Source of the DNA: an uncultured Bacteroidales bacterium
GTDB lineage: Bacteria; Bacteroidota; Bacteroidia; Bacteroidales; JAADJA01
Direction of reading: 5' to 3'
NCBI GenBank assembly: GCA_963840975.1
Contig: CAWJBC010000002.1
Location: 580,253 to 644,252 of the forward strand
Length of the DNA stretch: 64,000 bases
Numbering within the stretch: position 1 is the first letter of the stretch; each line of letters opens with the position of its first letter. Under the pieces are notes generated by a model, which saw only the letters and a program-made list of their open reading frames with translations, was not told the DNA's origin and did not search any database. This document shows, in pieces, positions 4,064 through 60,294 of the stretch. A program made the position numbers and the translations under genes.

Positions 4064-4132
4064 TAATTATATCAATTAACAACAATTTAACACTTTAAAT
4101 ATCAGAAACGCTTTATTTAATAAATAGAAAAT

Positions 4133-4140
4133 TATCTTTG
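4133..4140 (+). promoter_or_regulatory. Candidate Bacteroidota -7 box (TATCTTTG = TAnnTTTG)
   Basis: Exact TAnnTTTG match about 40 nt upstream of the 4181 start codon. Confidence 0.35.
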
Positions 4141-4180
4141 CCGGCGAAAATAATGTTAATATTCAAAAATTCAGCATTCT

Positions 4181-6557: not shown

Positions 6558-7623
6558 TGTCTCTGGGGTTTACAGGATCCGTAAAAACAATTTCTTCTAC
6601 AGTGGAAGCATCCTCATCAAACCAGTATTTACATGCTGATACAAAGTTTTCTTCAATACTATTCACAACCGGTTTATAAAAGCTGGATGAAACAGGACTA
6701 CTCCATAACTTAGAATTATCGAGGAATTGCGCATGGATCATATGAAATCCGCTTGTGAGGGTATCAAGATCAACAATATCGCTGAGATAGAAGATTTGAC
6801 TTGGTCCAACATCCTGATAATTCGCATTATTGGATGCATCATCAACCCAATATTTAAAGGCGATGATTTCGGGCATTCCCAAATCCAAAACCGGAGCCTT
6901 GAAAAAGAATTGACTTACCGGACTGCTCCAAATGTCAGCATTGTCTTTAAATCTCACGTTTACGGAATGGATGCCTGTGGATAAAAAGTTTACATCCAAA
7001 TCAGTACTTAACAAAAGTTGCTGAGCCGGACCAATGGGTTCGGTGATCATTTCTGATATGTCATTATCAAACCAATAGCTGATTTCTACAATCTCTTTTG
7101 TTTGAGATTCAAAGATGGGAGCTTTAAAAAAGAACTGGCTCTGCGGACTATTCCAATTTCCTGCATTGTCTTTAAACCTGACATTTACAGAATGGACGCC
7201 TGTGGTTAATCCGGTTACATTGAGATCCGAATTGATTAATAGCTGTGTTGCAGGACCAATGGGCGCGGTTGTCATTCCCAGGATATCATCATCGAACCAA
7301 TAGCTGATTTCTACAATCTCCTTATTTCCTGAACCTGCAACAGGGGCTTTAAAAAAGAAACTGCTAATCACCCCGCTTGAGCGCGCGTTTTCATCCAGAA
7401 ACTGAATATTAAAGGAATGTATTCCTATAGTAATACCTTCTGTTGCTATCGAAGCATCAAAAGTATAGTGAGGCGCAGGATTGATAAATGAAGTTACCAT
7501 TTCTGAGATGTCATTATCAAACCAATAGGTGTATGAGCGAACATTATTTTGCGCCCATGTTACCATATTAGCAAACAGTAACAAGACGAAAATCAGTCTT
7601 TTGAAAAGTATAAATATTCTCAT
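6541..7623 (-). CDS. Secreted repeat protein (five ~70-75 aa 'YWFD(N/D)D' modules); probably the 5' part of the 5358-6557 gene
   Basis: A signal peptide is followed by repeated 'EISYWFD.DI..M...PIGPA.QLL...DL.V..L.TG.HSVNVRFKDNA..W.SP.SQFFFKAP' modules. The last module is completed in the next ORF after a +1 shift. Confidence 0.7.
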   Translation of the reverse strand: MRIFILFKRLIFVLLLFANMVTWAQNNVRSYTYWFDNDISEMVTSFINPAPHYTFDASIATEGITIGIHSFNIQFLDENARSSGVISSFFFKAPVAGSGNKEIVEISYWFDDDILGMTTAPIGPATQLLINSDLNVTGLTTGVHSVNVRFKDNAGNWNSPQSQFFFKAPIFESQTKEIVEISYWFDNDISEMITEPIGPAQQLLLSTDLDVNFLSTGIHSVNVRFKDNADIWSSPVSQFFFKAPVLDLGMPEIIAFKYWVDDASNNANYQDVGPSQIFYLSDIVDLDTLTSGFHMIHAQFLDNSKLWSSPVSSSFYKPVVNSIEENFVSACKYWFDEDASTVEEIVFTDPVNPRDIDDGY

Positions 7624-38307: not shown

Positions 38308-40794
<2,487 letters not shown>

Positions 40795-42494: not shown

Positions 42495-42525
42495 TGTTAG
42501 ATTTTTGATATACGATTTTTGATTT

Positions 42526-43821
42526 ATGATTGAAAAGATGGATGCAAATAAAGAATTCTCAAGCAAAGCATATTTGGATATGGAACTCCTGCGCTTTACC
42601 ACTGCTGGTAGTGTGGATGACGGTAAAAGTACGCTGATCGGAAGATTGTTGTACGACAGCAAGTCAATTTTTGAAGATCAGCTTGAAGCAGTAAAAAGAG
42701 CAAGTATCCGGAAAGGCAATGAACAGATTAACCTTGCATTGTTAACTGACGGGCTTCGCGCCGAAAGAGAGCAGGGCATCACCATTGATGTGGCTTATCG
42801 TTATTTTGCTACTCCCAAACGTAAGTTTATCATTGCCGATACTCCTGGCCATGTGCAATATACCCGTAATATGGTAACGGGTGCTTCCACTGCCAATGCA
42901 GCCATCATCCTGATTGATGCCCGCAATGGCGTCACTGAACAAACTTACAGGCATTCCTACATCTCTTCTCTGCTGCAGATACCACACCTGATTGTTTGTG
43001 TGAATAAAATGGACATCGTCAATTATGATGAAAAGGTTTACGAGGAGATCAAGGAAAATTTCAGTGCATTTGCTTCCAAACTTGAGGTTAACGATATCAG
43101 GTATGTTCCCATCAGTGCACTGAAAGGTGACAATGTGGTAGAATATTCCGAAAACATGCCCTGGTATGGAGGTGGTACCTTGCGGTACATTCTTGAGAAT
43201 ATCCATGTCGGTAGCGACTGGAACCATACCGATCCGCGGTTTCCGGTTCAATACGTTATCAGGCCTATTTCTGATAAATTCCATGATTACCGTGGCTATG
43301 CCGGACGTGTAGCCGGTGGTGTTTTCAGCAAAGGAGACAAAGTAATGGTTCTCCCTTCGGGCTTTGTCACTTCAATTGAGGCTATTGATTTTTATGATCA
43401 GCAACCCGAAGAAGCCTATGCGCCCATGTCGGTTACCATGCGGCTGACCGATGACCTGGATATCAGCCGGGGCGATATGATAGTTAAAGAGAACAATGTT
43501 CCTCAGATCAGTCAGGATATTGATGTGATGATGTGCTGGATGAACAACAAACCATTGATTCCCGGAACAAAATACCACTTAAAGCACACCACAGCCGATG
43601 TAAAATGTTTGGTCAAGGAAATAAAATACAAGGTGGATGTAAACACCCTCAACCAGGTGGATGATGGAAAAGAATTAACGATGAACGAAATCGCCAGGGT
43701 TTCGATCCGGACAACCAAGCCCTTGTTTTTTGATTCTTACCGGCAAAACCGTCAGACCGGAAGCATTATTTTGATTGATGAAGGAACAAACAACACTATG
43801 GGTGTTGGGATGATCATTTAA
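42526..43821 (+). CDS. cysN: Sulfate adenylyltransferase subunit 1 (GTPase)
   Basis: GTPase motifs 'GSVDDGKST', 'DTPGH' and 'NKMD'. The beta-barrel domains are EF-Tu-like. Confidence 0.9.
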
Positions 43822-44899: not shown

Positions 44900-45430
44900 A
44901 TGAATCTGATCGAAGAGAATACCTGGTATGCGGTTTATACCAGGCCGAGAAATGAAAAAAAGGTTTATGCCGCTTTGGATGCCGAAGGAATCCAGGTCTT
45001 TCTTCCTTTAATAAAAAACCTGAAACAATGGAGCGACCGAAAAAAATGGGTGGAGGAACCCTTGTTCCGTTCTTATCTTTTTGTTCATATTCCTCCAAAT
45101 CAATATTATAAAGTTTTGAATGTATTTGGCGTTGTGCGCTACATTACCTTCGAAGGAAAAGCTGTTGCGGTGCCACCCCAGCAAATTCTGGCAATAAAAC
45201 AATACATCAACGACGGAGAGATATTGCAGGAAGGTGAAAAGAATTTCGCAGCCGGAGATAAAGTCGAAATCTTCCGTGGCGCTTTAAAAGGTTTGACCGG
45301 AAATTTGATAAAGATTCAGGGAAAACAAAAGGTGAAAATCGAAATTGAATCCATCGGACACAGTATCACCATTACCATTCCTCCATCTTATCTCAGGACA
45401 ATACAAAAACCGGTAAGGAAAAATAATTGA
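44900..45430 (+). CDS. UpxY-family (NusG/RfaH-like) transcription antiterminator
   Basis: 'WYAVYTRPRNEKKV' NGN domain and a C-terminal KOW 'GDKVEIFRGALKGLTGNLIKI'. Confidence 0.8.
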   Translation: MNLIEENTWYAVYTRPRNEKKVYAALDAEGIQVFLPLIKNLKQWSDRKKWVEEPLFRSYLFVHIPPNQYYKVLNVFGVVRYITFEGKAVAVPPQQILAIKQYINDGEILQEGEKNFAAGDKVEIFRGALKGLTGNLIKIQGKQKVKIEIESIGHSITITIPPSYLRTIQKPVRKNN

Positions 45431-45449: not shown

Positions 45450-45478
45450 TTGACTTTTTAAAATATTGAGTAACTTTG
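45450..45478 (+). promoter_or_regulatory. Candidate promoter (-33 TTGA, 18-nt spacer, -7 TAACTTTG)
   Basis: TTG at 45450-52 and TAnnTTTG at 45471-78. A leader of about 150 nt follows, containing the palindrome gaaccggttc. Confidence 0.4.
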
Positions 45479-45625
45479 TTACTCGTTTTTGTGTAAAAAA
45501 TTATTTCTTTTAACATTTTAAACAAAGAGATAAGCATAAATTAAACAGTCATTTTGTGACTGACCGGGCGAAGCTGTATCAGTGAGATAAGATGAACCGG
45601 TTCATTCAAATTGGGATTTTCCCTC

Positions 45626-47013: not shown

Positions 47014-47605
47014 AACCCAGTCGGAAGTATTACCCTATCTGAAAACATTTAACCGTACTTTTTATTTGGTAGGGGGTACAGCAATTGCTTTTCACCTGGG
47101 ACACCGTCGTTCTATTGATTTTGATTTGTTTTGCCCTTCACCATTAAATAAACATCGGATAAAAAGTAAATTACTGACTATTCCGTTCAAACAAAATATG
47201 ATTTTTGAAGATTTTGACCAGATGCATTTAATGATCAATGAAGTCAAAACAACTTTTTTTAATTACCCTTATCCTGTTGAGCATCCCGTTAAAATCGAAA
47301 ATTATTTGACCATCCCTCAGCTTATTGATCTTGGTGCAATGAAAGCATTTGCCCTTGGGCGAAGAGCAAAATGGAAAGACTATGTGGATTTGTTTTTTAT
47401 TCTTAAAGATCATTCTACAATAGAAGAAATAAGTATTAAGGCCAAATCTATTTTTGGCTCCATTTATAATGAAAAGCTGTTTCGGGAGCAACTGGCTTTT
47501 CATAAAGACATTGACTTTTCTGAACCTGTTGAATTCATGGTTCCAGAGATTTCCGAAAAAGAAATCAAAGATTTTTTAACAGAAAAAGCGATTGATTTTT
47601 TATAG
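46991..47605 (+). CDS. AbiEii/AbiGii-like nucleotidyltransferase (toxin-like)
   Basis: N-terminal 'YLVGGTAIAFHLGHRRSIDFDLF' matches the family motif as I remember it. Family assignment is not verified. Confidence 0.55.
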   Translation: MRLEILSKTQSEVLPYLKTFNRTFYLVGGTAIAFHLGHRRSIDFDLFCPSPLNKHRIKSKLLTIPFKQNMIFEDFDQMHLMINEVKTTFFNYPYPVEHPVKIENYLTIPQLIDLGAMKAFALGRRAKWKDYVDLFFILKDHSTIEEISIKAKSIFGSIYNEKLFREQLAFHKDIDFSEPVEFMVPEISEKEIKDFLTEKAIDFL

Positions 47606-47650
47606 AATCTACCAAACAAGACTTGCAAGATTTTTTATTATTTTTGATCA

Positions 47651-47950
47651 ATGAGATTAACAGAAAAATATAAAACTGCCATTCAGAAATCTGCGGAATG
47701 TATATTTGGAATTGATGTACAGGTATTTCTGTTCGGTTCGCGGACCAATGACCAGTTAAAGGGTGGAGATATTGATCTGCTCATTAAAGCAGAAGGACGA
47801 AAGATGACAGCCCGGAACAAAGTCCTTTTTCTGGTAAATCTAAAAAAACAGTTGGGAGAGCAGAATATAGATGTCGTATATGAAAAGGTTTCTTATCGAA
47901 AGGATTTATTTTTTGAATCTATCCATAATCAGGCAATACGGTTATGCTAA
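47651..47950 (+). CDS. Minimal nucleotidyltransferase (MNT-type antitoxin-like)
   Basis: 'LFGSRTNDQLKGGDIDLLI' GS...DxD motif. 99 aa. It overlaps the next ORF by 7 nt. Confidence 0.7.
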   Translation: MRLTEKYKTAIQKSAECIFGIDVQVFLFGSRTNDQLKGGDIDLLIKAEGRKMTARNKVLFLVNLKKQLGEQNIDVVYEKVSYRKDLFFESIHNQAIRLC

Positions 47951-48423
47951 GTCAGCTATATATAGATAAGCTCAGGGAAACACTCGTAGCTGCACAGTTA
48001 CATCATCAGCGGATGATGTTTGCAGGGAACGAATTGTCACAATTCTTCCCTATGTCCATAGAGAAGTATGAAGAATTAACACCCGAACAAATCAGTTTTA
48101 CTGATCAGTTGATTTATCGTTTTTCAAAATTACAGGATTTGATGGGCCGGAAATTATTTGTGCTGATTATACAAGGATTAGGAGAAGATTCGGAGAGTAT
48201 GCCCTTTATAGATGTCCTTAACAGGCTTGAGAAGCTAAAAATATTAACAGATACTGATCAATGGCTTGAATTACGCGAAACCCGCAACCTTGTTACCCAT
48301 GAATATCCTTACCATCTGGATGAATTTGTTGACGGCCTTAATGCGTTGTACAACCAAAGCCTGAAGCTTTCTGAGATTTGGCTTGGCATTAAGACGTTTG
48401 TTGAAAAAAGGTTTGATCTTTAA
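47944..48423 (+). CDS. HEPN-domain protein (HepT-like toxin partner)
   Basis: Helical 159-aa protein with 'RETRNLVTHEY', an Rx4H HEPN motif near the C-terminal third. It is translationally coupled to the MNT gene. Confidence 0.6.
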   Translation: MLSQLYIDKLRETLVAAQLHHQRMMFAGNELSQFFPMSIEKYEELTPEQISFTDQLIYRFSKLQDLMGRKLFVLIIQGLGEDSESMPFIDVLNRLEKLKILTDTDQWLELRETRNLVTHEYPYHLDEFVDGLNALYNQSLKLSEIWLGIKTFVEKRFDL

Positions 48424-48439
48424 CAAATAAATTTGGTTA

Positions 48440-48503
48440 ACCCCAAAACATTAAACCCCAAACCTGAAACAGACATCGAACATCGAACCTCAAACTTCGA
48501 ACT
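48440..48503 (+). repeat. A/C-rich 'GAAC/AAAC'-periodic tract
   Basis: ccccaaaacattaaaccccaaacctgaaacagacatcgaacatcgaacctcaaacttcgaac, immediately upstream of wbpB. Confidence 0.5.
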
Positions 48504-48506
48504 AAA

Positions 48507-49457
48507 ATGAACAATAAGATTCTCAACTTCGGCCTCATAGGCGCTGCCGGCTACATTGCCCCGCGTCACATGAAAGCCATTAAAGATACAGGAAACAAGC
48601 TGGTTGCAGCCCTCGATCTTTACGACAGCATCGGCATCATTGATTCCTATTTCCCGGAAGCCGATTTTTTTACGGAGCCGGAACGTTTCGACCGTCATTT
48701 GGACAAACTCCGCCGAAGCGGAAAGGATAAAATAGATTACCTGAGCATCTGTTCTCCTAATTATCTGCATGATGCTCATATCCGGATGGCGCTGCGCAAT
48801 GATGCCCATGCCATCTGCGAAAAACCGCTTGTGCTCAATCCCTGGAATGTAGAGGCGCTTGGCGTGATAGAGCAGGAGACAGATAAAAAAATCTTTACCA
48901 TTTTACAGTTGCGTCACCATCCATCCATTATCGCACTGAAAGAAAAGATAAAAAACGGACCGGCAGATAAAACCTATGATGTTGACCTAACCTATATCAC
49001 TTCACGGGGCAACTGGTATTACCGTTCGTGGAAGGGGTATATGGAAAAGAGCGGTGGCATCGCCACTAACATCGGGGTTCACTTCTTTGATATGCTGAGC
49101 TGGATATTCGGCAAATGTTCCGAAAACATTGTGCATGTAGGTGAAAACGACAGGGCGGGAGGTTTTCTTCAGCTCGAAAAAGCGCGTGTCCGCTGGTTCC
49201 TTAGTATAAATTCCGACACCCTTCCCTCTCATGTAAAGGCAAAAGAACAAACCACTTACCGTTCTATTACGATTGACGGAGAAGAAATTGAATTCAGCGG
49301 TGGCTTTACCGATCTGCATACTGCAAGTTACGAGGGAATCATAAAAGGTCAGGGATATGGACTGGAAGAAGCCCGCAATGCTGTGGATATTGTGTTTACC
49401 ATCCGGAATCAAAAACCGGTGAAAGCGACGGGTGAAAAACATCCAATGGTGGAATAG
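48507..49457 (+). CDS. wbpB: Gfo/Idh/MocA oxidoreductase, WbpB-like (UDP-N-acetyl-2-amino-2-deoxy-glucuronate 3-dehydrogenase)
   Basis: 'GLIGAAGYIAPRHMKAIKDTGNKLVAALD..DSIGIIDSYFP...FFTE' and 'YLSICSPNYLH...ICEKPL' closely match the WbpB N-terminal region as I remember it. Confidence 0.8.
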   Translation: MNNKILNFGLIGAAGYIAPRHMKAIKDTGNKLVAALDLYDSIGIIDSYFPEADFFTEPERFDRHLDKLRRSGKDKIDYLSICSPNYLHDAHIRMALRNDAHAICEKPLVLNPWNVEALGVIEQETDKKIFTILQLRHHPSIIALKEKIKNGPADKTYDVDLTYITSRGNWYYRSWKGYMEKSGGIATNIGVHFFDMLSWIFGKCSENIVHVGENDRAGGFLQLEKARVRWFLSINSDTLPSHVKAKEQTTYRSITIDGEEIEFSGGFTDLHTASYEGIIKGQGYGLEEARNAVDIVFTIRNQKPVKATGEKHPMVE

Positions 49458-49558
49458 AGGAAATGACAATTATAGGTGAAACAATTCAGAACATCAAACA
49501 TAGAACTGCGTCTGGCGTTTATTGGCAAATACTGCTGGAGACGATGAGGTTTTGACAG

Positions 49559-50887
49559 ATGAAAGAAAGTCAGAGCATAGAATATAAAGAATCCTGGCGG
49601 GATGAAAACTTAAAGATTATTTGCGCTTTTGCAAATACCCATGGTGGCAGTCTTTTCATTGGTATAAGTGATGATGGTTCAGTTGTAGGAGTGAAAGATA
49701 CAAAAAAACTTTTAGAAGATATTCCAAATAAAGTGATTAATTATCTGGGAATAATTGTTGATGTTCAAACCCATAAAAAATCAGGATTGGAATATATCGA
49801 AGTGAATGTACCACAGAGTAGTGTTCCAATTGGTTATCGGGGAATATATTATGTGAAAAGCGGTAGCACAAAACAAGAATTGAAAGGAGCGGCCCTTCAG
49901 CAATTTATGTTACAAAAGATGGGAAAAACCTTTGACGAACTACCTGCCGATAGTGCTGATTTTAGCTACATTGACGAAAAAGTGGTTGAAAGGTTTTTGA
50001 AAAAAGCGTTGGCTGTTAATCGGATTTCTGCAGGCGCAGAATTTGATGATATTTCTTCCACCCTTTTAAATCTAAAACTGATTAACAAAAACAACAAGAT
50101 AATAAATGCTGCAATACTCCTGTTTGGTTATGATCCACTCAGGTTCTTTGTTACTGCTACCTTTAAGATTGGCCGTTTCGGCAATAGTGATCATGATTTG
50201 AGATTTCAGGATATTATTGAAGGAAATATTTTTGAGATGCCTGACAAAGTGATGGAAATGTTAAGGGCAAAATACTTGATTTCTCCTATTCGTTACGAGG
50301 GATTACAAAGGATTGAAGAGCTTGAATATCCTGAAGTGTCTCTAAGAGAGGCTATTTTAAATGCAATTGTTCATAAAGATTATACGGGTGCTCCTGTTCA
50401 ACTTAGTGTTTATGACGACAGGTTAATTCTTTGGAATGAAGGAAAGCTTCCTTCTGACCTGACAGTACAAATGCTAAAGGAAAAACACCCGTCAAGGCCA
50501 CACAATAAGTATATTGCGGATATATTTTTTAAAGCCGGATACATTGAAACATGGGGGCGGGGTATTGCAAAGATAATGGACGGTTGTAAAAAAGCAGGAC
50601 TGCCCGAACCAACAATTGAAGAAGTGGCTGGAGGAGTTCAAATAACCTTTTTTAAATCCAACGAATTAGATACGGGAAAAAGTAAGGAGAAAAGTAAGGA
50701 GAAAAGTAAGGAGAAAATTATAAAAGCAATCTCTGAAAATCCATATATTTCGATTCTTGAACTGTCAGCAATTACAGGATTGAGCATTAGCGGAGTAGAA
50801 AAAAACATTCGGATTTTAAAAAAACATGGAACTTTATCTCGAATAGGCCCCGCCAAAGGCGGTCACTGGCAAATCATTGAAAAATAA
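49559..50887 (+). CDS. AlbA_2 (Schlafen-like) + HATPase_c_4 + C-terminal wHTH protein, paralogue A1
   Basis: 'ESQSIEYKESW...ICAFANTHGGSLFIGISDDG' (AlbA_2). 'REAILNAIVHKDY...' with '...IETWGRGIAKI' (RecG-C-like HATPase_c_4). wHTH tail '...RIGPAKGGHWQIIEK'. Confidence 0.8.
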   Translation: MKESQSIEYKESWRDENLKIICAFANTHGGSLFIGISDDGSVVGVKDTKKLLEDIPNKVINYLGIIVDVQTHKKSGLEYIEVNVPQSSVPIGYRGIYYVKSGSTKQELKGAALQQFMLQKMGKTFDELPADSADFSYIDEKVVERFLKKALAVNRISAGAEFDDISSTLLNLKLINKNNKIINAAILLFGYDPLRFFVTATFKIGRFGNSDHDLRFQDIIEGNIFEMPDKVMEMLRAKYLISPIRYEGLQRIEELEYPEVSLREAILNAIVHKDYTGAPVQLSVYDDRLILWNEGKLPSDLTVQMLKEKHPSRPHNKYIADIFFKAGYIETWGRGIAKIMDGCKKAGLPEPTIEEVAGGVQITFFKSNELDTGKSKEKSKEKSKEKIIKAISENPYISILELSAITGLSISGVEKNIRILKKHGTLSRIGPAKGGHWQIIEK

Positions 50888-50923
50888 TTGAGCACGGAAC
50901 GAATGATCCCTGAACTGTCAGCC

Positions 50924-51195
50924 GAATTAAGACTGCCTTGCCACAGGCATCCCTTTGGGAAAATTGACTAAAGTTTTGATTGACTAAATTGAAAAAGCCA
51001 GCAGCCAACAGCCAATTGCTAAAAGCTTTTTCAACAGTCAACCCTCAACGGAGAACTGAATTAAGAATGCCTTGCCACAGGCATCCCTTTGGGAAAATTG
51101 ACTAAAGTTTTGATTGACTAAATTGAAATTGCCAACAGCTAACAGCCAATTGCTAAAAGCCTTTCCAACTGTCATCCGTGAACTGAGAACCGGGA
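50924..51195 (+). repeat. 134-bp intergenic repeat, tandem dimer 1 (unit starts 50924 and 51058)
   Basis: Unit: gaattaaga(n)tgccttgccacaggcatccctttgggaaaattgactaaagttttgattgactaaattgaaa..gccaacagc.aacagccaattgctaaaagc... Aligned by eye with the four other copies. Confidence 0.9.
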
Positions 51196-51242
51196 ACAGA
51201 ATTGAATAGTGCCTAAAATTAGTGAAGCATTACTGAACTCAA

Positions 51243-52617
51243 ATGACTGACCAGGAATTATATAACTTAATACAACAAGGTGAAGGTGAAAACCTTGAAT
51301 TTAAAAGCAATTTCAATAGTGAGCTTATTGAGACTTTAGTTGCTTTTGCAAACACAAGAGGAGGAAAGGTTGTTCTGGGTATTAATGATAAGAACAAATT
51401 TACAGGAATTAAGATCAGCTCGGAATCAGTACAAAACTGGATCAATGAAATCAAAAATAAAACATCACCCGCATTGATGCCTGATGTAACAATCATTGAG
51501 TCAGGAGTACAAATAAGTGTTGTCTTTTCCATTCAGGAATATCCGGTTAAGCCTGTTTCAACCCGTGGTAAGTATTATAAACGTATTGCCAATTCAAATC
51601 ATCTGATGAGCCTTGATGAAATTTCAAATGAGCACCTGAGAACAATTAACAGTAGCTGGGATTTTTATCCCGACCCTAATCACGGCATTGAGGCGATATC
51701 CATAAGTAAAGTTAAAAATTTCATCTGGAAGATTGAGCAGCAAACGCAAGCCAAAGTTGAACTTGAACCAATGGCCTTTCTGTCGAAATTCGAAATTATT
51801 CGCGATAAGCAACTAACATTTGGTGGATTTTTACTTTTTGTCAAAGAGTATTGCCTGAACAGCGATATTCAGGTGGGGCGCTTTAAAAGTGAAACCATGA
51901 TCATTGACAGTATTTCATTAAATACCGACTTATTTACCGAAGTGGATGAAATACTTGCTTTTATAAAAAAGCACCTCATGGTTGAGTACATCATCACCAG
52001 CGAACCCCAGCGGACTGAGCGCTTTGATTATCCAATGGATGCCATCCGTGAAATTGTTATCAATATGATCGTGCATAGGGATTATCGCGACAGCAGTCAC
52101 AGCATAATCAAAATATTTGACGAAAGAATCGAATTTTTTAATCCGGGTAAACTTTATGGAAATCTTACTATCGCAGATTTACTTAGTGATAACTATACTT
52201 CCCAAACACGAAATAAACTTGTAGCAAAAGCTTTTAAAGAAACAGGACTAATTGAACGATACGGTTCCGGCATCAGGCGTATAATCAATATCTGTAAAGA
52301 ATATGGGGTCAAACAACCCCTGTTTGAAGAAGTATTTCATGGATTCAAAGTTACTTTATTCAAAAAGAAGATCATGGTCGGAGAAAAGGTCGGAGAAAAG
52401 GTCGGAGAAAAGGTCGGAGAAATTCTTAGTGAAAACCAAAAAATGATTATTAAATTGATTAAGTTAAATAATCATATTTCTGCCCGTGAACTTTCAGATG
52501 GAACTTAATATATCTCAGCGAAAAATTGAAGAAAACATCAGTAAACTAAAGAAAAAAAAAATACTCAAACGGATTGGACCCCCCAAAGGCGGCTTTTGGG
52601 AGATCATCGTCAATTAA
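51243..52617 (+). pseudogene. AlbA_2 + HATPase_c_4 + wHTH protein, paralogue A2, frame broken once near the 3' end
   Basis: 'NLEFKSNF...LVAFANTRGGKVVLGINDKN' and 'REIVINMIVHRDY...IERYGSGIRRI'. The wHTH tail 'ELNISQRKIEENISKLKKKKILKRIGPPKGGFWEIIVN*' is read after a +1 shift at about 52500 (gg). Confidence 0.75.
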
Positions 52618-52668
52618 GCAACCCGAAACCCAGAACACTGAACCCGGAACCGTGAACCCTGAACGAAT
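52618..52668 (+). repeat. A/C-rich 'GAAC'-periodic tract
   Basis: gcaacccgaaacccagaacactgaacccggaaccgtgaaccctgaacgaatg. Confidence 0.5.
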
Positions 52669-52670
52669 GA

Positions 52671-52768
52671 TTTAACCGCGAAAAACCGCAAATTAACCGC
52701 GAATTTTACGAATTACACGCCGATTGGCGCTAATTGGCGATAGATCTGCGCAATCAGCGGTGAAAAAA
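52671..52768 (+). repeat. About 95-nt intergenic repeat, family 2, copy a
   Basis: tttaaccgcgaaaaaccgcaaattaaccgcgaattttacgaattacacgc... aligns with 54630-54725 with scattered mismatches. Confidence 0.7.
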
Positions 52769-52958
52769 CCTTTAAAATCATACAAAAGATTCTATGTAGA
52801 ACCTCAAACCCCGAACTTCAAACTTCAATCTTACCACGAATACCCAATGTTCTGATTGACTTAGTTGAAATCAAACCCGAAACGCTAAACAAAATATTAA
52901 TAACCTTTGACATCTGATGCATTCCTATTGAGAATTTCCGGATTCCCGGTATTAACAA

Positions 52959-54314
52959 ATGTCTGAAAATCAAAACATAGAGTTTAAGCAAACCTGGCGT
53001 GATGAATATCTGAAATGGATATGTGGTTTTGCCAATGCTTACGGAGGAAAAGTTTTTATCGGTCTGGATGACAATGGTAACGCTTTAGGCCTCTCGAATA
53101 CTCAAAAGCTGATGGAAGACATTCCGAATAAAATAGTTAATTATTTAGGAGTGTTAGCAGATGTGAATTTGTTGGAGAACAGGGGTGAGCAATACATTGA
53201 GATTATTGTTACCCCTTCAAGTGTGCCTATTTCTTTCAAAGGGATCTATTATTACCGTTCTGGCAGTACCAAGCAGGAACTTAAAGGAACAGCATTGCAT
53301 CAGTTTCTTTTAAAACGTACCGGACATACATGGGATGACCTGCCTTGTGAAAGTGCTACTTTGCAGGATATTGATACGGATGTTGTAAAATACTTCTTCA
53401 AAAAAGTTGCTGTAAGCAAACGTATCGCCGATAATGCAGGTGATGATGATTTGAAAACAACGCTTGAAAATCTGGATCTTCTATCAAACATTGGTCACCT
53501 GAAAAATGCAGCTTTGTTGCTGTTCGGTAAAAAGCCATCACGGTTTTTTCCATCAGTATCTTTCAAAATAGGCAGGTTTATTGATGGTGATGATGATTTA
53601 CGTTTTCAGGATGTGGTTGAAGGAAATATTCTTCAAATGGCGGACAAAGTACTGGATATCCTGAAATCAAAATACCTGATTTCACCCATCCATTATGAAG
53701 GTCTGCAGCGGATAGAAAGGCTCGAGGTTCCGGAAGATTCGCTCAGGGAAGCTATTTTTAATTCAATAATACATAAGGATTATACCGGAGCTCCGATCCA
53801 GTTGAGCGTTTACAATGATAAAATTATTCTTTGGAATGAAGGCCGGTTACCTGAAGGATTTACCATTGAAACCTTGCTTGAAAAGCATCCCTCAAGACCC
53901 AGCAATAAAAACATTGCAGATATTTTCTTCAAAGCAGGCTTTATTGAGGCCTGGGGCCGGGGTATTGCAAAAATTGTCAATGGTTTTGTTCATTCAGGAT
54001 TACCTGCTCCGGTTTTTACGTTGGCTATGGGTGGTATAATGGTCACCATCAAAAGAGAAATATCAGATCAAGGTGACTCAATTGATCATAAAAATGTTAC
54101 AGAAAACGTTACAGTAAATGTTACAGAAAACAGAAAGGCTATCATACTTGAGATAATTAGAAAAAATAATAGAATTACAACTCAGGAAATGGCTCAAATA
54201 CTCGGAGTAACGCGAATGACAATAGCAAGAGACATTGAATTTTTTAAGCAAAAAGGCATGCTTCATCGCATTGGACCTGCCAAAGGCGGTCACTGGCAAA
54301 TCATTGAAAAATAA
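52959..54314 (+). CDS. AlbA_2 + HATPase_c_4 + wHTH protein, paralogue A3
   Basis: Collinear with A1 over the full length. 'NQNIEFKQTW...ICGFANAYGGKVFIGLDDNG', 'REAIFNSIIHKDY...IEAWGRGIAKI' and an identical tail 'RIGPAKGGHWQIIEK'. Confidence 0.8.
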   Translation: MSENQNIEFKQTWRDEYLKWICGFANAYGGKVFIGLDDNGNALGLSNTQKLMEDIPNKIVNYLGVLADVNLLENRGEQYIEIIVTPSSVPISFKGIYYYRSGSTKQELKGTALHQFLLKRTGHTWDDLPCESATLQDIDTDVVKYFFKKVAVSKRIADNAGDDDLKTTLENLDLLSNIGHLKNAALLLFGKKPSRFFPSVSFKIGRFIDGDDDLRFQDVVEGNILQMADKVLDILKSKYLISPIHYEGLQRIERLEVPEDSLREAIFNSIIHKDYTGAPIQLSVYNDKIILWNEGRLPEGFTIETLLEKHPSRPSNKNIADIFFKAGFIEAWGRGIAKIVNGFVHSGLPAPVFTLAMGGIMVTIKREISDQGDSIDHKNVTENVTVNVTENRKAIILEIIRKNNRITTQEMAQILGVTRMTIARDIEFFKQKGMLHRIGPAKGGHWQIIEK

Positions 54315-54350
54315 TTGAGCACGGAACGAATGATCCCTGAACTGTCAGCC

Positions 54351-54622
54351 GAATTAAGATTGCCTTGCCACAGGCATCCCATTGGGAAAATTGACTAAAG
54401 TTTTGATTGACTAAATTGAAATTGCCAACAGCTAACAGCCAATTGCTAAAAGCTTTTTCAACAGTCAACCCTCAACGGAGAACTGAATTAAGATTGCCTT
54501 GCCACAGGCATCCCTTTGGGAAAATTGACTAAAGTTTTGATTGACTAAATTGAAAAAGCCAACAGCTAACAGCCAATTGCTAACAGCCTTTTCAACTGCC
54601 ATCCGTGAATTGAGAACCAACA
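54351..54622 (+). repeat. 134-bp intergenic repeat, tandem dimer 2 (unit starts 54351 and 54485)
   Basis: Same unit as 50924-51195, with the same 134-nt spacing. Confidence 0.9.
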
Positions 54623-54629
54623 ACAAAAG

Positions 54630-54725
54630 TTTAACCGAGAAAAACCGCAAATTAACCGCGAATTTTACGAATTACACGCTGATTAGCGCAAATAAGCGAT
54701 TAATCTGCGCAATTAGAGGTAAAGA
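54630..54725 (+). repeat. About 95-nt intergenic repeat, family 2, copy b
   Basis: tttaaccgagaaaaaccgcaaattaaccgcgaattttacgaattacacgc..., matching 52671-52768. Confidence 0.7.
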
Positions 54726-54883
54726 CAAACCCGGAACCGAAAGCGCAGCACCGAAAATGGATCAATTAATTTCATGTAATTTGATTACAAACACAGGAAA
54801 AATAATTACGAAAAGCATGCAGGTTGCCGTAAATCTTCAAATAATCAACAATACTGACCGATAATAAAACAGGAAATAATAAA

Positions 54884-55141
54884 ATGAATTTTCAATTTTC
54901 CAAACACTCAATTGAACAGATAAAAATACGCGGCCTTAGCATTGATATTATTTCCGAATTAATTGAGAATCCGGACAAGACCATAACCCATATTTCCGGT
55001 ACCATCATTTATCAAAAGCTTGTCAATGAAGACAATAAATACTATATTTACAGGGTTTTTATAAATAAAGAAAAGAAACCACCACTGGTGATTACAGCAT
55101 ATAAAACATCAAAAATTGAAAAATATGAAGATCAGGTATGA
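54884..55141 (+). CDS. DUF4258-family protein (toxin-like)
   Basis: 'FSKHSIEQIKIRGLSIDIISELIENPD' resembles the DUF4258 N-terminus. 85 aa. It overlaps the next ORF by 26 nt. Confidence 0.6.
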   Translation: MNFQFSKHSIEQIKIRGLSIDIISELIENPDKTITHISGTIIYQKLVNEDNKYYIYRVFINKEKKPPLVITAYKTSKIEKYEDQV

Positions 55142-55319
55142 TAAAGAAACCGACATTGTTTACATCCGTTTTTCGGATTTAGCAATAGCTGAAAGCGATC
55201 AGGAAAAGCCAGGTATTATCCTTGATTATACAAAGAATGGTCAAATTGTCGGCATAGAAATTCTTAATGCCTCTGCCAATATTGAACAGGTTAATGGTAT
55301 TCTTTATGAAGTAGCCTGA
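55116..55319 (+). CDS. DUF2283-family protein (antitoxin-like)
   Basis: 'MKIRYDKETDIVYIRFSD...GIEILNAS' is the classic DUF2283 pattern. 67 aa. Confidence 0.7.
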   Translation: MKNMKIRYDKETDIVYIRFSDLAIAESDQEKPGIILDYTKNGQIVGIEILNASANIEQVNGILYEVA

Positions 55320-55341
55320 ACAAAAGCGAGAACCCTGAACG

Positions 55342-55600
55342 GAATTAAGATTGCCTTGCCACAGGCATCCCTTTGGGAAAATTGACTAAAGTTTTGATTG
55401 ACTAAAATGAAATTGCCAACAGCCAACAGCCAATTGCTAAAAGCCTTTTCAACAGTCAACCCTCAAGGGAGAACTGAATTAAGATTGCCTTGCCACAGGC
55501 ATCCCTTTGGGAAAATTGACTAAAGTTTTGATTGACTAAATTGAAAAAGCCAACAGCCAACAGCCAATTGCTAAAAGCCTTTTTCAACAGTCAAACTCAG
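55342..55600 (+). repeat. 134-bp intergenic repeat, tandem dimer 3 (unit starts 55342 and 55476)
   Basis: Same unit and spacing as the other dimers. The last copy diverges after about nt 120 into a GAAC-rich tract. Confidence 0.9.
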
Positions 55601-55668
55601 AACCCAGAACCCAGAACCCGGAACACAGAACTCAAAACCCGGAACTCAAAACCTTGAACTGAGAACAC
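55594..55668 (+). repeat. A/C-rich 'GAACCC(A/G)'-periodic tract
   Basis: aactcagaacccagaacccagaacccggaacacagaactcaaaacccggaactcaaaaccttgaactgagaac. Confidence 0.6.
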
Positions 55669-55721
55669 AAAAAATGCTCTTTAACTCCATCCATTTCGTA
55701 CTCTAAAAATCTTTAAAAGAA

Positions 55722-57231
55722 ATGATTAACAAAATTATAGAATCAATTAATAATTTTCCTGAACGCAACGCATTCTTTATCAAGGATAAATTCTATACTT
55801 ATGCTCCAGCTTGGGACAGGAGATTTCAAATATAAAAAATGTTTTATTGCCCCATTTACCAAAAGTTTCTCCAAAATATATTGGGGTAATGATGTATGAG
55901 GATTTCGAATCCTATGCATCTTGTATAACTGTTTTACTTTCTGGTTGCGGGTATGTCCCTTTAAACCCATTGAATCCGATAGAGCGTAACCTTGAAGTCA
56001 TTCATCAGGCAGGAGTAAAAATAATTTTATCCAGCAACACAACATCTGAATTAGCATACAATAGGAATAAGAATCTGACATTTATTGATACCGGCAAATT
56101 ACCAGATGGAACCATTGATCTTGAGTTTCCCCCAACAAAAGATGATGATCCGGCTTATGTAATTTTTACTTCCGGCAGTACAGGCAAACCAAAAGGAGCA
56201 CCCATAAGCAGAGGAAATCTAAATGCATTTCTTGATTCTGTCTGGGATATTGGCTGGGATATTAACGAAGAAGACAGGTTTCTTCAAATGTCAAGTATGA
56301 CTTTCGATATGTCCATTCTTACTTTCATTATTCCTCTGTGTGTCGGAGCCTGTATTTATACTGTACCGGAAGATGAGATCAAATACCTTTTTGGATTTAA
56401 GCTTATGGTCGAACAGGGTATCACATTCATTGCCGTTGTTCCTTCTACGCTTATCTTACCTTAAACCATATTTCAGCTCAATCAATCTTACATCAATTCG
56501 ATATTCTCTGGTTTGTGGTGAATCGTTTCCGATAGAATTGGCTAACCTTTGGCAGCAATGTGTTCCTAACGGAAAAATCGTAAATATTTATGGGCCCACG
56601 GAAGCAACGGTATTCACACATTCATACCATTACAGCAAAGGAAACCATGACAAATCTTACAACAACATCATGGCGCTTGGCGACCTGGTGAAGAATATGG
56701 AAACATTGATCCTTGATGAAACTGAAAATGAAGTTGAACAAGGACAAAAAGGAGAATTGTGTATTTCCGGAAAACAACTGACAAGCGGCTACCTTAATAA
56801 TCCTGAAAAAAACCTGGAAAGTTTTTTCATAAAAAAATCCGGTAGTGTTGAAAAAAGATTTTACCGCACAGGTGATATTGTTTTTGTGGATAATGAAAAT
56901 TGTTATTTTTATGTTGGAAGGAAAGATCATCAGGTTAAAATACAAGGGCACCGGGTTGAATTGGGCGATATTGAAAAACACGCCAGAGACATAACGCTTA
57001 CAGAAAATACAATCGCTCTTGCTCAGTTAAACGAATTCGGAAATTATCATATCCATCTTTTTACCGATCAAACTGATTTCAATCGTGAGGATATACTTAA
57101 ATATCTGAAATCCAAATTGCCTTATTATATGATTCCTTCCAATGTGACCAAAAGTGGAAAAAATGCCGATGAATGTTAATGGTAAAATTGACCGGCTTGC
57201 ATTGTTGAAAATGATTAAAAACCGTAAGTAA
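55722..57231 (+). pseudogene. DltA-like adenylation enzyme (AMP-dependent synthetase/ligase, carrier-protein ligase), at least 3-4 frame breaks
   Basis: 'YVIFTSGSTGKPKGA' (A3 core), 'YGPTEATV' (A5), 'YRTGD' (A7), 'GRKDHQVKIQGHRVELGDIE' (A8) and 'NVNGKIDR' (A10, read after a shift at about 57150). Fragments lie in frames 0, 2, 0, 1. Confidence 0.8.
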
Positions 57232-58864: not shown

Positions 58865-60294
58865 ATGTTGTTTAATTCTTTTGAGTTTCTGATTTTTTTA
58901 CCGGTTGTTGTTCTTGTATATTATATTATACCAAACAACAACTATTAAGCGGATCGTTCTTATTCTGGCAAGTATCTTTTTTATTGTCAGTGCCAATGTT
59001 TTTTCGTTATTAATCATTTCATTAATTTCTGTTTTTAATTACTTTATAGGATTAGAAATTGCAAAAAATAAAGATTTAAAAGTTGTAAAAGGGCTTTTTC
59101 TTCTGGCTGTTTTAATCAATGTTGGTAACCTTTTCTTTTTTAAATACTACGATTTTTTCAATGAAAATTTAAGTATTGCATTGGGGTTGATAAACATTAA
59201 AAATCCTTTGCCTTTTGTTCATATTTTTCTTCCGCTCGGTATTTCATTTTACACGTTTTCAGTTCTTGGATATATTATTGATATCAGGATAAATAAAATT
59301 AAACCGGAAAAAGACTTTTTTGCCTTTCTGAACTATGTTTTCTTTTTCTCAAAATTATTGGCGGGACCCATTGACAGGGCACAGAATTTTCTTCCTCAAT
59401 CCCATCAGGAGAAGTCAATTACTTATGAAAATTTTTCAATTGGGGGGAAACTTATTATCTGGGGATTTTTTCAGAAACTTGTTATCGCTGACCGAATCAG
59501 TATTTATGTTGATACTATTTACCAAAATGTTGGAATACATTCTGGTATTACAATTATGGTTTGCCTTGTCCTTTATACTTTTCAGATTTATGCTGATTTT
59601 TCAGGTTATACAGATATTGCACGTGGAATAGCACGTATTCTGGGGTACGACCTGATGGAAAACTTCCGCAGACCTTTGCTTGCCAATTCCATTACCGAAT
59701 TCTGGAGACGATGGCATATTTCACTTTCATCATGGGTCAATGATTATGTATATACACCCTTATCATTGAAATACAGAAATCTTGGAATTTATGGAATTAT
59801 CTTAGCCCTTTTTATCAGCTTCTTTATTGTTGGAATATGGCATGGAGCGCTGTGGACATTTGTTTTATTTGGATTTTTACAAGGAATCATCATTACATTT
59901 GAATTTTTAACCCTCAGGAAACGAAAGAAGATATTTAAGCAGCTTCCCCGGAAATTGGTTCATACAGGCGGAATAATAATAACTTTTATAATCGTTGTAC
60001 TTAGCCTGGTATTCTTCCGGGCTCCAACATTTAATACAGCAGCTCTTGTCTTTGAAAGAATTACTGCATCCGGTAATTTTTTTATTGGTTCAGTTGCAGT
60101 ACTTATTTATTCATTTGCAGGAATTGTCATTCTTGCTTTCACATGATATTGTGAAAGAATATTTCAACAGAGATATTCTCAAAATCAGGTCAAGATTTTT
60201 GATTATCAGGATACTTCCTTATGCTGCGCTGGTAATAATTATTTTAATGATCGGAGTTTTTGATGGAGGTCAATTTATTTATTTTGCCTTTTAG
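58865..60294 (+). pseudogene. MBOAT-family membrane O-acyltransferase (DltB/AlgI-like), two frame breaks
   Basis: 'MLFNSFEFLIFLPVVV' start, 'FWRRWHISLSSW' (catalytic His region) and a C-terminus ending 'FIYFAF'. Fragments lie in frames 2, 0, 1. Confidence 0.85.

Follow-up and report, generated by a model that had tools for sequence, protein, structure and literature searches.

How does the same non-coding sequence come to stand, in tandem and always in one orientation, between unrelated accessory genes of a bacterial polysaccharide locus, and what kind of element is it? The question is raised by a 64,000-nt stretch of genomic DNA from an uncultured Bacteroidales bacterium (hereafter, the window; contig CAWJBC010000002.1, positions 580,253 to 644,252), in which a 134-nt intergenic unit occurs six times, as three tandem pairs, among genes for AlbA_2-domain and toxin-antitoxin-like proteins. 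On balance, and with a modest preference, we think that the unit is a lineage-specific recombinogenic minisatellite, and a component of mosaic spacers between accessory cassettes, rather than a dedicated recombination site, an RNA gene or an operator. It constitutes a new sequence family of an already known class.

Copies and anatomy of the unit

Repeat search, Tandem Repeats Finder (TRF) and alignment all recover six units on the + strand, arranged as three head-to-tail pairs with no spacer and with starts at 50924/51058, 54351/54485 and 55342/55476, the within-pair offset being exactly 134 nt in 3/3 pairs, just as the original prediction had it. The first array (50924-51191; units 50924-51057 and 51058-51191) lies between A1 and A2, two of the three AlbA_2 paralogs (A1-A3) of the locus; the second (54351-54618; units 54351-54484 and 54485-54618) lies between A3 and a different spacer module, R, followed by a DUF4258 gene; and the third (55342-55599; units 55342-55475 and 55476-~55599) follows a DUF2283 gene, its second unit passing directly into a tract of heptamer repeats. 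Each pair indeed stands 3′ of a + strand gene, as had been noted, and each also stands 5′ of one. TRF assigns a period of 134 with 86-95% matches, and the repeat search groups the units as a single family (D1). Pairwise identity among the six is 80-96%; the first units of the three pairs are 95-96% alike, as opposed to 84-90% between a unit and its own partner, so that the pairs were either copied as pairs or built from a 3′-type and a 5′-type unit. An nhmmer profile of the six units detected no further full unit in the 64-kb window and no copy in its other 59 kb, the only partial copy being a box region (TGATTGACTTAGTTGAAAT) at 52844-52871 on the + strand, about 100 nt upstream of A3 (nhmmer E=0.026, and sequence reading). 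Short-read Logan contigs from an independent metagenome (X3) span the unit 1/unit 2 junctions at 54405-54551 and 55396-55542, and the tandem layout is therefore not an artefact of long-read assembly. The element is real, non-random and well delimited.

The unit is composed of two dissimilar halves. Positions 1-66 form a non-periodic core with GAATTAAGA, a short hairpin, a CCC-TTT-GGG motif and two ATTGACTAAA boxes, while positions 67-134 (68 nt) consist of decayed xAACnnn heptamers with a period of 7, reading TGCCAAC AGCCAAC AGCCAAT TGCTAAA AGCCTTT TCAACAG TCAACCC TCAACGG AGAACTG. The lag-7 autocorrelation of this 3′ half is 0.53, compared with 0.27 +/- 0.05 in shuffles (p<0.0005), which identifies the unit as a core fused to a decayed heptamer array; in the first unit of the second array the heptamer-phased stretch (54423-54493, + strand) reads TGCCAAC AGCTAAC AGCCAAT TGCTAAA AGCTTTT TCAACAG TCAACCC TCAACGG AGAACTG AATTAAG. 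The CA-rich tract that had been listed as a separate motif is present, but together with everything 3′ of it it belongs to this period-7 array. The hairpin, GA(N)TGCCT-TGCCAC-AGGCATC, has a stem of 5-7 bp and a loop of 6 nt and occupies unit positions 9-28; folding and sequence reading place it, as GA[T]TGCCT-TGCCAC-AGGCATC, at 54359-54378, and on the + strand of the other copies at 50932-50951, 51066-51085, 54493-54512, 55350-55369 and 55484-55503. Within the window its sequence varies at a single base, unit position 10 (C, A or T in different copies), and on re-reading the hairpin, this single variable base and the two boxes were all found as first described. The CCC-TTT-GGG motif is likewise present, except that the unit at 54351 has CCC-ATT-GGG. 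The double box has the form TTGACTAAA-N7-TTGACTAAA, with starts 16 nt apart and a gap of 7 nt, which corrects an earlier spacing of 18 nt. Pattern matching locates it on the + strand at 54391-54415 and, in the other copies, at 50964-50988, 51098-51122, 54525-54549, 55382-55406 and 55516-55540, i.e. six exact matches in the window versus 0.23 expected by chance; elsewhere in the window the motif has two coding matches, and none on the minus strand.

Beyond the units, the same spacers contain pure heptamer tracts. Ten tracts of at least three xAACnnn units were found in the window, all on the + strand and intergenic, between 48446 and 55669, whereas shuffled sequences give 0.15. One of them, with 11 heptamers and an A+C content of 77%, extends over 55593-55669 and stops 5 nt before an ATG; others lie at 48446-48505, 49489-49509, 51180-51200, 52619-52667, 52799-52826 and 52873-52893, and the tract at 48478-48505 stops 1 nt short of the ATG at 48507. 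The heptamers include GAACCCA, GAACTGA and CAACAGT; TAACTGA is not among them. The tracts are composed of 39-45% A, 32-37% C, 14-18% G and 6-8% T, and fold weakly. The R module, 94 nt in length, is present on the + strand at 52671-52764, after A2 (family D6, nhmmer), and at 54630-54723, after the second unit array (repeat search and nhmmer), with a shortened copy at 4573-4629 of a related contig, L024 (see below).

Taken in order, the spacers are mosaics of heptamers (H), units (U) and R: GFO -H- A1 -UU- A2 -H R H u′ H- A3 -UU R- DUF4258/DUF2283 -UU H- MBOAT remnant, where GFO denotes an oxidoreductase gene and u′ the partial unit. Some junctions carry heptamers and R only, or nothing (e.g. 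47605-47651). The heptamers of the units provide direct microhomology flanking every core. Like the unit, R (TTTAACCGCGAAAAACCGCAAATTAACCGCG...GCGCAATCAGCGG) is a lineage-specific component of the spacers; it is partly self-complementary, its antisense strand bears a weak terminator-like hairpin, and the stability of its fold is only weakly above that of shuffles.

Variation between strains and among relatives

Two contigs of one European Nucleotide Archive (ENA) metagenome assembly, L001 and L024, were recovered by exact-protein look-up and are 99.1-99.6% identical to the window in shared genes (99.4-99.6% for L024, from ENA sample ERZ25039527). Together with a 3.1-kb short-read contig of run X2 (hereafter X2), they show that the number of units per junction is 1, 1 (hairpin-less), 2, ~2.7 or 6 across near-identical strains. 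In L001 three units come after the DUF2283 gene, two of them complete and the last one internally deleted. In L024 the order is GFO, DUF4160/DUF2442 (in place of A1), one unit, A2, A3, heptamers, a shortened R, a fourth AlbA_2 paralog and six tandem units. In X2 the genes A1-A3 are absent, a single hairpin-less unit follows DUF2283, and a box fragment follows AbiEii. Compared at the same junction, counts are 1 (X2), 2 (window) and ~2.7 (L001) after DUF2283, 1 (L024) versus 2 (window) before A2, and 2 or 6 after an AlbA_2 paralog. The pair state is therefore not a property of the element: the "exact dimers" that gave the element its first description are a trait of one assembly, and their regularity is incidental. 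As in a minisatellite, or variable-number tandem repeat, the copies stand head to tail without spacer and their number differs between close strains at the same locus.

The hairpin proved equally inconstant. The 22-23 nt that bear it are missing from two natural variants, the third unit of L001 and the X2 unit, and the outgroup L025 aligns collinearly with units that have no hairpin, indicating that the hairpin is a late addition. A variant in run X2 has CCCTTTGGG replaced by TCCTTCGGGA, with pairing still possible.

In the window, L024, L001 and X2 alike, units are confined to spacers between co-oriented accessory genes, and it is exactly at these spacers that gene content diverges between strains. 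The segment GFO-A1-U|U-A2 of the window corresponds to GFO-DUF4160-DUF2442-U-A2 of L024, homology being lost right after the GFO stop codon (49460) and regained at 51053, which is the unit 1/unit 2 junction. The earlier idea of a cassette boundary is thereby upheld as a description, while its extension to a dedicated recombination site is not, there being no attC-like palindrome, no terminal inverted repeat (TIR) and no recombinase in what was searched, and 1-6 copies per junction. Sliding identity between A1 and A3 reveals a second signature of exchange: the two are 50-70% identical along the gene but 95-99% identical from ~50850 through both units. The homogenised tract (50850-51190, + strand, shared with 54277-54617; family D2) takes in both units and the spacer as well as the final ~40 nt of the A1/A3 coding sequence (CDS); it is the product of gene conversion or recombination, by which the spacer is linked to the end of the CDS.

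We sought to determine how widely the unit is distributed. Profile searches with unit, box and R models covered more than 80 related loci, including 80 metagenome loci encoding A3 relatives. The unit and R were found only in L001 and L024, and the box also in L025, L026 and L071; the unit profile had no match in the 80 metagenome loci. The hairpin 20-mer TGCCTTGCCACAGGCATCCC gave two matches in a collection of one genome per GTDB species, neither of them a unit, and no match in viral contigs, where the box pair with N7 gave eight unrelated matches. The 25-mer box pair had 0 matches in JGI metagenome contigs, and blastn found no match in plasmid and phage collections. Metagenomes that hold the unit offer only a handful of flank contexts; the species is present in sample ERZ25039527 and in runs from sediment, hot springs and marine sites. 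The unit is confined to a very narrow lineage. Concerning the two genome matches, the one in Mesorhizobium is limited to the searched 20-mer and is at about chance level. The other, in a Victivallales metagenome-assembled genome (MAG; CAYFPQ010000022.1, L002 1005-1030), is a 25-nt identity to the unit hairpin (AATGCCTTGCCACAGGCATCCCATT), extending 5 nt past the searched 20-mer; a heptamer-like tract (CAACATC CAACACG GAACACC CAACTTC) stands 20 nt upstream of it, in the intergenic region before a GT2 glycosyltransferase gene, and the identity, which is in another phylum than the window, could be due to chance, horizontal transfer or a small dispersed element.

Relatives of the locus exhibit comparable spacers built from other sequences. 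In L025, L114 and L115, with A3 relatives of ~79-80% identity, each AlbA_2 gene is followed by heptamers and a different core of ~70 nt (GCGGCAGCAGCAG...GGCAGT...). This sister-lineage core (GCGGCAGCAGCAGTGGCAGTAGGCAG...GACCAAAAACCGTGAACCCAACTT) was observed at 142-215, 2538-2600 and 4141-4205 of L025, ~1640-1710 of L114, and ~560-640 and 2115-2150 of L115. L061 and L058 contain CTCAACnnn and GAACAAC repeats together with 56-nt and 44-nt tandem hairpin modules, which in L061 sit between UPF0175/DUF3368, ORF6N, YoeB, YhcG, AbiEii and AlbA_2 genes. Their positions are 1346-1483, 4059-4172 and 12754-13038 in L061 and 11687-11950 in L058, the CTCAACnnn repeats being 8-9 nt long, the GAACAAC-type array 180 nt long, and the 44-nt hairpin units five in tandem; the 56-nt modules carry a CCCCAATGAAAT...ATTTCACGGGG hairpin, and the annotated genes of L058 are DUF4258, DUF2283 and an MBOAT fragment. 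L116 is another polysaccharide locus headed by MNT/HepT, three RhuM genes and an AlbA_2 gene. L026 comes from a related species, is syntenic with this region of the window (Wzc 85%, CysN 89%, NusG-like 72%, AbiEii 73% and DUF2283 81% identical) and has another set of cassettes, no unit, and a full MBOAT gene after the set. It also contains a ~250-nt array of GGGCAAA/GAGCAAA heptamers at 2122-2377, downstream of cysD and upstream of cysN, where the window has a gap of 31 nt with a 14-nt repeat (42500-42531). Arrays like those of the unit disrupt assembly, and two related contigs have one of their ends within such an array.

Outside the lineage, homologues of the unit could be recognised for its double box alone, in L025, L026 and L071. 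In these relatives it reads (A/G)TTGCCTAAA, and both boxes differ from those of the window by the same A-to-C change. The local alignment score of the box is 31 in both L025 and L026, against 15 +/- 2.4 in shuffles, and a box profile built from the L025 and L026 homologues also matches L071 (E=2e-4). Phage contigs from IMG/VR (L007, L009, L012, L017, L018 and L022) contain AT-rich, iteron-like arrays of 2-7 direct repeats AATTGACTAAATTTGAGT/AATTGACTAAATTTGATTT at ~18-19-nt spacing, which have the 10-mer ATTGACTAAA in common with the unit and no other similarity to it.

Origin of the unit and competing explanations

These results suggest a scenario in which the core, embedded in a heptamer array, would have been duplicated by slippage or unequal crossing-over, with the period kept exact. 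The 134-800 nt of sequence shared as a result would serve as portable homology, on which RecA-type recombination and gene conversion could delete, swap and reorder the flanking cassettes and at the same time spread the spacer, so that a dedicated recombinase would be unnecessary. The spacers would be transcribed through as part of the operon, and their A/C-rich, G/T-poor and weakly structured RNA would be tolerated, or may even be useful for Shine-Dalgarno-independent initiation, under the NusG paralog encoded upstream; the double box may additionally bind a protein. RNA that is A/C-rich, G-poor and weakly folded would be a good Rho substrate and, at the same time, a structure-free leader for Shine-Dalgarno-independent initiation. 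Shine-Dalgarno sequences are absent upstream of the window genes, as judged by sequence reading. By analogy with what is generally known of NusG paralogs, and with the features described in PMC11685472, the build-up of spacers downstream of such a gene and of a putative ops-like leader fits an antiterminated operon.

Several observations should be weighed against the minisatellite reading. The copies were surveyed within 64 kb of the source genome, on a contig of 668,873 nt, so that dispersal elsewhere in it is possible. Recombination was deduced from the end-states in three assemblies, two of which are error-prone long-read contigs. Transcription rests on one 241-nt metatranscriptome contig, which may represent contaminating DNA. 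Finally, a passive satellite does not need either the strict sense orientation or a double box that is preserved across species with a paired A-to-C change, and the orientation and the conserved boxes hint at a sequence-specific function. The locus is a well-documented example of short heptamer repeats seeding a higher-order 134-nt satellite, in which such spacers accompany the gain, loss and reordering of toxin-antitoxin and AlbA_2 cassettes in a polysaccharide operon; the arrays mark a hypervariable segment and could serve strain typing.

The original prediction held that no annotated feature class explains the unit, which was too strong a statement, as variable-number mosaic intergenic repeats and heptamer assemblages are both described classes. 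The nearest functional analogue is found in the neisserial intergenic mosaic element (NIME) arrays. Located next to variable genes, these mosaics of 50-150-nt modules are dynamic, differ from strain to strain and have been proposed to act as recombination substrates (PMC1797815). Both NIME arrays (RS elements between dRS3 repeats) and the present spacers are non-coding mosaics with modules of 50-150 nt, adjoin variable surface-related or cassette-like loci, differ in length and content between strains, and are proposed to supply homology for exchange of flanking genes. NIME modules, however, are bounded by 20-bp inverted dRS3 repeats used by a phage recombinase and number in the hundreds per genome, whereas the unit is bounded by direct heptamers and was seen at one locus, and there is no sequence relation between the two. 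Heptamer direct repeats are known from Beggiatoaceae, cyanobacteria and five Bacteroidetes, where they show 7-nt indels between strains and occur near start codons, and where larger assemblages are common to near-identical intergenic regions (PMC4679880). Those repeats resemble the tracts of the window in being tandem, intergenic, mostly forward and often positioned a few nucleotides before a start codon, and in Elizabethkingia they occur in near-identical intergenic regions between genes with high-identity stretches (PMC4679880), which matches the situation of A1 and A3. The repeat reported by MacGregor in 2015 is TAACTGA, in contrast to xAACnnn here, and a higher-order 134-nt unit with a non-heptamer core and tandem amplification is not described for the heptamers of PMC4679880. 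Within the Bacteroidota, BrickBuilt of Porphyromonas gingivalis is a species-specific minisatellite or MITE, i.e. miniature inverted-repeat transposable element (PMC4596501). It resembles the unit in being lineage-restricted and strictly intergenic, with an internal tandem unit of variable number, but differs in having a 23-nt unit, leader and tail subunits with inverted-repeat ends, 19 dispersed sites and promoter activity, as opposed to 134 nt, no inverted ends, no promoter consensus and one locus. Among other bacteria, the bacterial interspersed mosaic elements (BIME) with their repetitive extragenic palindromic (REP) sequences in enterobacteria, and the BOX elements of pneumococci, are modular extragenic mosaics located in operons at the 3′ ends of genes; in BOX the middle module, boxB, varies in its number of repeats. 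The modules of both REP and BOX form palindromes and are dispersed in hundreds of copies, and REPs are tied to REP-associated tyrosine transposases (RAYT); palindromic modules, dispersal and a link to RAYT were not found for the unit within the window.

Could the unit instead perform a specific task? The boxes speak most directly for this. It is rather unlikely, though the leading alternative, that the paired ATTGACTAAA boxes are direct-repeat sites for a DNA- or RNA-binding protein, with array length tuning occupancy and with the C-terminal winged helix-turn-helix (wHTH) of the AlbA_2 proteins, a nucleoid protein or an elongation-complex factor as candidate binders. This would account for other species matching the unit significantly in the box region alone, for the boxes changing together (TTGACTAAA here versus TGCCTAAA in L025, L026 and L071), for the near absence of the motif from the rest of the window, and for a single TGCCTAAA box located 25 nt upstream of the A2 start. 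Yet the neighbours of the arrays (A1, A3, A4, DUF2283, DUF2442 and AbiEii; A2, DUF4258 and the MBOAT remnant) are unrelated and include no constant partner gene, A1 and the fourth paralog of L024 have no upstream box, the boxes of L071 are in the opposite orientation, the comparison covers only four lineages, and gene conversion also yields concerted change of adjacent repeats. A structured RNA or insulator-terminator was likewise part of the original prediction. A role at the RNA level, in which the unit would be a structured part of the operon transcript and would attenuate or insulate, be processed, stabilise a 3′ side, or, with its hairpin ahead of CCC-TTT-GGG, serve for pausing or for re-loading the NusG paralog, appears quite improbable. 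It draws on the location of every copy on the sense strand of a co-directional array, on the nearly invariant short hairpin and CCC-TTT-GGG, on a C-to-T stem change that keeps a G-U pair, on the pairing retained in the variant of run X2, on the NusG paralog and ops-like leader just upstream, and on the 241-nt metatranscriptome contig, which covers a unit and the A2 start and is the single informative contig from a run holding 8% of the query words; no RNA runs for the 9.8-kb region were found. Minimum free energy z-scores of single units on both strands relative to shuffles are, however, ~+0.2 to -1.9 (-0.9 for the hairpin region alone), and none of 19 proposed pairs shows a compensatory change, although copies 80-100% identical are too young for covariation and leave almost no power for helices 1 and 2, making this test weak either way. 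A 10-bp long-range stem (TTGAAAAAGC/GCTTTTTCAA) is broken in 9-13 of 15 copies, where an AA/TT polymorphism goes uncompensated, and the hairpin is dispensable in the two natural variants. There is no + strand intrinsic terminator inside the units, only weak antisense-strand matches to the hairpin; Rfam 15 gave 0 matches at the gathering score over the whole window and 0 at E<=1 over 48300-55800. With respect to promoters, sigma-70-type matches in the units are at chance level and the Bacteroidetes pattern TTTG-N17-23-TAnnTTTG has no match. In Bacteroides, UpxY acts with a pause hairpin plus non-template DNA elements (PMC11685472), the pause site of opsX lying at a set distance behind its hairpin; by comparison with opsX, the hairpin, the CCC-TTT-GGG and the G-G...T-G geometry of the unit are suggestive at most, and the leader at 45546-45576 is the better candidate. 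Lastly, we find it hardly credible that the tandem units are an antitoxin RNA, similar to those of type III toxin-antitoxin systems, directed against a nuclease-like protein of the AlbA_2/Schlafen fold. Variable-number tandem non-coding repeats do adjoin toxin-antitoxin-type and AlbA_2 genes, and arrays lie directly upstream of A2 in two strains, but the downstream gene varies (A2, DUF4258, the MBOAT remnant or none), no promoter or terminator frames the array and no terminator separates it from the gene, and one copy suffices in L024. Known ToxI-type repeats are also about four times shorter than 134 nt.

Mobility offers another class of explanations. That the unit or its hairpin core is a small mobile element, similar to MITE, REP or small dispersed repeats, mobilised by a transposase in trans and with the arrays being secondary, has a low probability in our estimate. 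A hairpin segment of 22-23 nt is indeed present or absent between otherwise collinear units (unit 3 of L001 and X2, with L025 collinear), and AATGCCTTGCCACAGGCATCCCATT occurs beside a heptamer-like tract in the Victivallales MAG; small dispersed repeats embedded in Nostoc heptamer arrays are said to have been described by Elhai et al. in 2008. Nevertheless, the three arrays with their flanks have no TIRs and no recognisable target duplications, only internal pairs of 9-10 nt, and the unit profile has no significant antisense self-match. No recombinase or transposase Pfam match was found among ~67 open reading frames (ORFs) of the window, nearly all ORFs of at least 200 aa included, and no RAYT/Y1-transposase match; the copies are direct rather than inverted, and all lie at one locus in one orientation. 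The genome, viral, plasmid and phage collections hold no unit, and the Mesorhizobium match is at about chance level. Equally, the unit has little prospect of being an equivalent of attC used by a dedicated recombinase encoded outside the window, a reading that we hold to be very improbable. Like attC and the Vibrio cholerae repeats, it is ~120-130 nt in size and follows small, co-oriented, toxin-antitoxin-rich cassettes such as those of chromosomal integrons; each cassette or pair of cassettes is followed by a repeat-bearing spacer, and the cassette content of strains differs at the repeats. In contrast, attC sites, one to a cassette and recombined by IntI, are imperfectly palindromic and have inverse core sites that are conserved, while the unit has no palindrome and no RYYYAAC...GTTRRRY inverse core pairs, occurs in 1-6 tandem copies at a junction (some junctions having heptamers and R only, or nothing), and is replaced by unrelated cores in relatives; Pfam scans of the window found no tyrosine or serine recombinase, and the homogenised tracts reach into CDS, as expected of homologous rather than site-specific exchange.

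Assignment to other repeat classes was considered as well. There are no unique spacers between the copies, as there would be in a clustered regularly interspaced short palindromic repeat (CRISPR) array; a coding repeat is excluded by a length that is not a multiple of 3; and diversity-generating retroelements and retrons by the lack of a reverse transcriptase. The three arrays with their flanks lack the TIRs and target-site duplications of a MITE, the direct copies and the lack of a Y1 transposase in the window differ from REP, REPIN and BIME, and the local hairpin of 5-7 bp, with no long inverted arms and 1-6 copies per junction, differs from attC.

A more far-reaching extension may be considered, although we deem it unlikely: the heptamer, unit and R spacers would be working parts of a cassette system that needs no integron integrase and is located where Bacteroidales polysaccharide operons begin. 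Its further propositions may be stated as follows. A hot spot in sediment and sludge Bacteroidales, behind a NusG paralog and an ops-like leader, might load and shuffle toxin-antitoxin, AbiE, RhuM and AlbA_2 cassettes; every cassette might bring its own A/C-rich heptamer leader and lineage-specific core; the recurrent 5′ remnants of MBOAT genes might be scars at the insertion site; and the double box might be read by a co-evolving protein, either one that directs recombination or a factor of the elongation complex, which would explain the A-to-C change in both boxes. Should the broader pattern be true, with heptamer-spaced cassettes regularly located just downstream of a NusG paralog at polysaccharide loci, it would link three topics: the unexplained heptamers of Bacteroidetes and cyanobacteria, selfish and defence genes in antiterminated operons, and integrase-independent cassette turnover.

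Genes of the locus and minor repeats

The region is a polysaccharide locus that includes, by Pfam, Wza, Wzc, CysC/D/N, epimerases, a dlt-like set of AMP-ligase, acyl carrier protein and MBOAT, NanE and NeuB. The stretch between the NusG-like gene and the biosynthetic genes is filled with co-oriented accessory genes, in which Pfam recognises a wHTH-nucleotidyltransferase-like ORF, MNT, AbiEii, MNT/HEPN, the GFO oxidoreductase, A1-A3 and DUF4258/DUF2283. The NusG-like gene itself (UpxY-type; 44900-45430, + strand; Pfam NusG and KOW) lies just upstream of the cassette array and is syntenic in L026. It is followed on the same strand, within 45467-45576, by a terminator-like hairpin with a T-run (45467-45493), then by the hairpin CAGTCA-TTTTG-TGACTG of the leader (45546-45562) and by GGGCGAAGCTG (45566-45576), a candidate ops-like site with a resemblance to non-template-strand elements of the ops type.

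A1 (49559-50887, + strand) and A3 (52959-54314, + strand) both combine, by Pfam, AlbA_2, HATPase_c_4 and wHTH domains, while A2 (51243-52617, + strand) has AlbA_2 and HATPase_c_4, with its C-terminal wHTH in another frame after an A-run near 52550. A2 is intact in L024 (457 aa), and the frameshift is probably a long-read indel. Apparent frameshifts also occur in the AMP-binding gene, split into 55811-56464/56340-57179, and at the MBOAT start (~58866-58950) after a T-run; these three cases, together with the fragmented genes of L001, suggest that long-read assembly has left homopolymer indels and that the genes are not pseudogenes. Among named homologues, those nearest to A3 come from Bacteroidales and Salinivirgaceae MAGs, and exact-protein look-up of A1 returned no record. 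The overlapping DUF4258/DUF2283 pair (54884-55319, + strand; Pfam and exact protein look-up) is toxin-antitoxin-like. A search for tRNA and tmRNA genes found none.

Right after the last heptamer tract, sequence reading identifies a 5′ remnant of an MBOAT gene, MLFNSIHFVL* (55674-55706, + strand). Remnants of this kind, from DltB/AlgI-like MBOAT genes (ATGCTCTTTAAYTCC...), follow the last cassette spacer in three contigs, i.e. the window, L001 (~1203-1300) and L071 (~897-975), and are longer in the latter two; full MBOAT genes begin at ~58866 of the window (ORF called 58905-60146) and at 12384 of L026. The recurrent remnants may be scars of recombination or insertion.

In addition to the spacers, the AlbA_2 genes have a second, coding layer of repeat variability. 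Each paralog contains its own 12-nt in-frame tandem repeat, of 3.3-3.9 copies, which encodes tetrapeptides in the linker before the C-terminal wHTH (50678-50717, 52376-52422 and 54091-54131 in the window, and ~11700-11745 in L026). Another coding repeat, the hexanucleotide GGCTAC/GGTTAC at 40644-40730, encodes the C-terminal tail, rich in tyrosine (GYGYGY), of the Wzc-like tyrosine kinase and chain-length regulator (38308-40794). Elsewhere in the window, a 215-nt direct repeat (6884-7098/7109-7323; 74% identical, 225 nt apart) lies inside a minus-strand ORF (6541-7623) that Pfam does not match; the repeat probably stems from duplication of an internal domain, in a protein adjoining a PKD protein sorted by the type IX secretion system (T9SS), the T9SS sorting domain being located at 5358-6557 on the minus strand.

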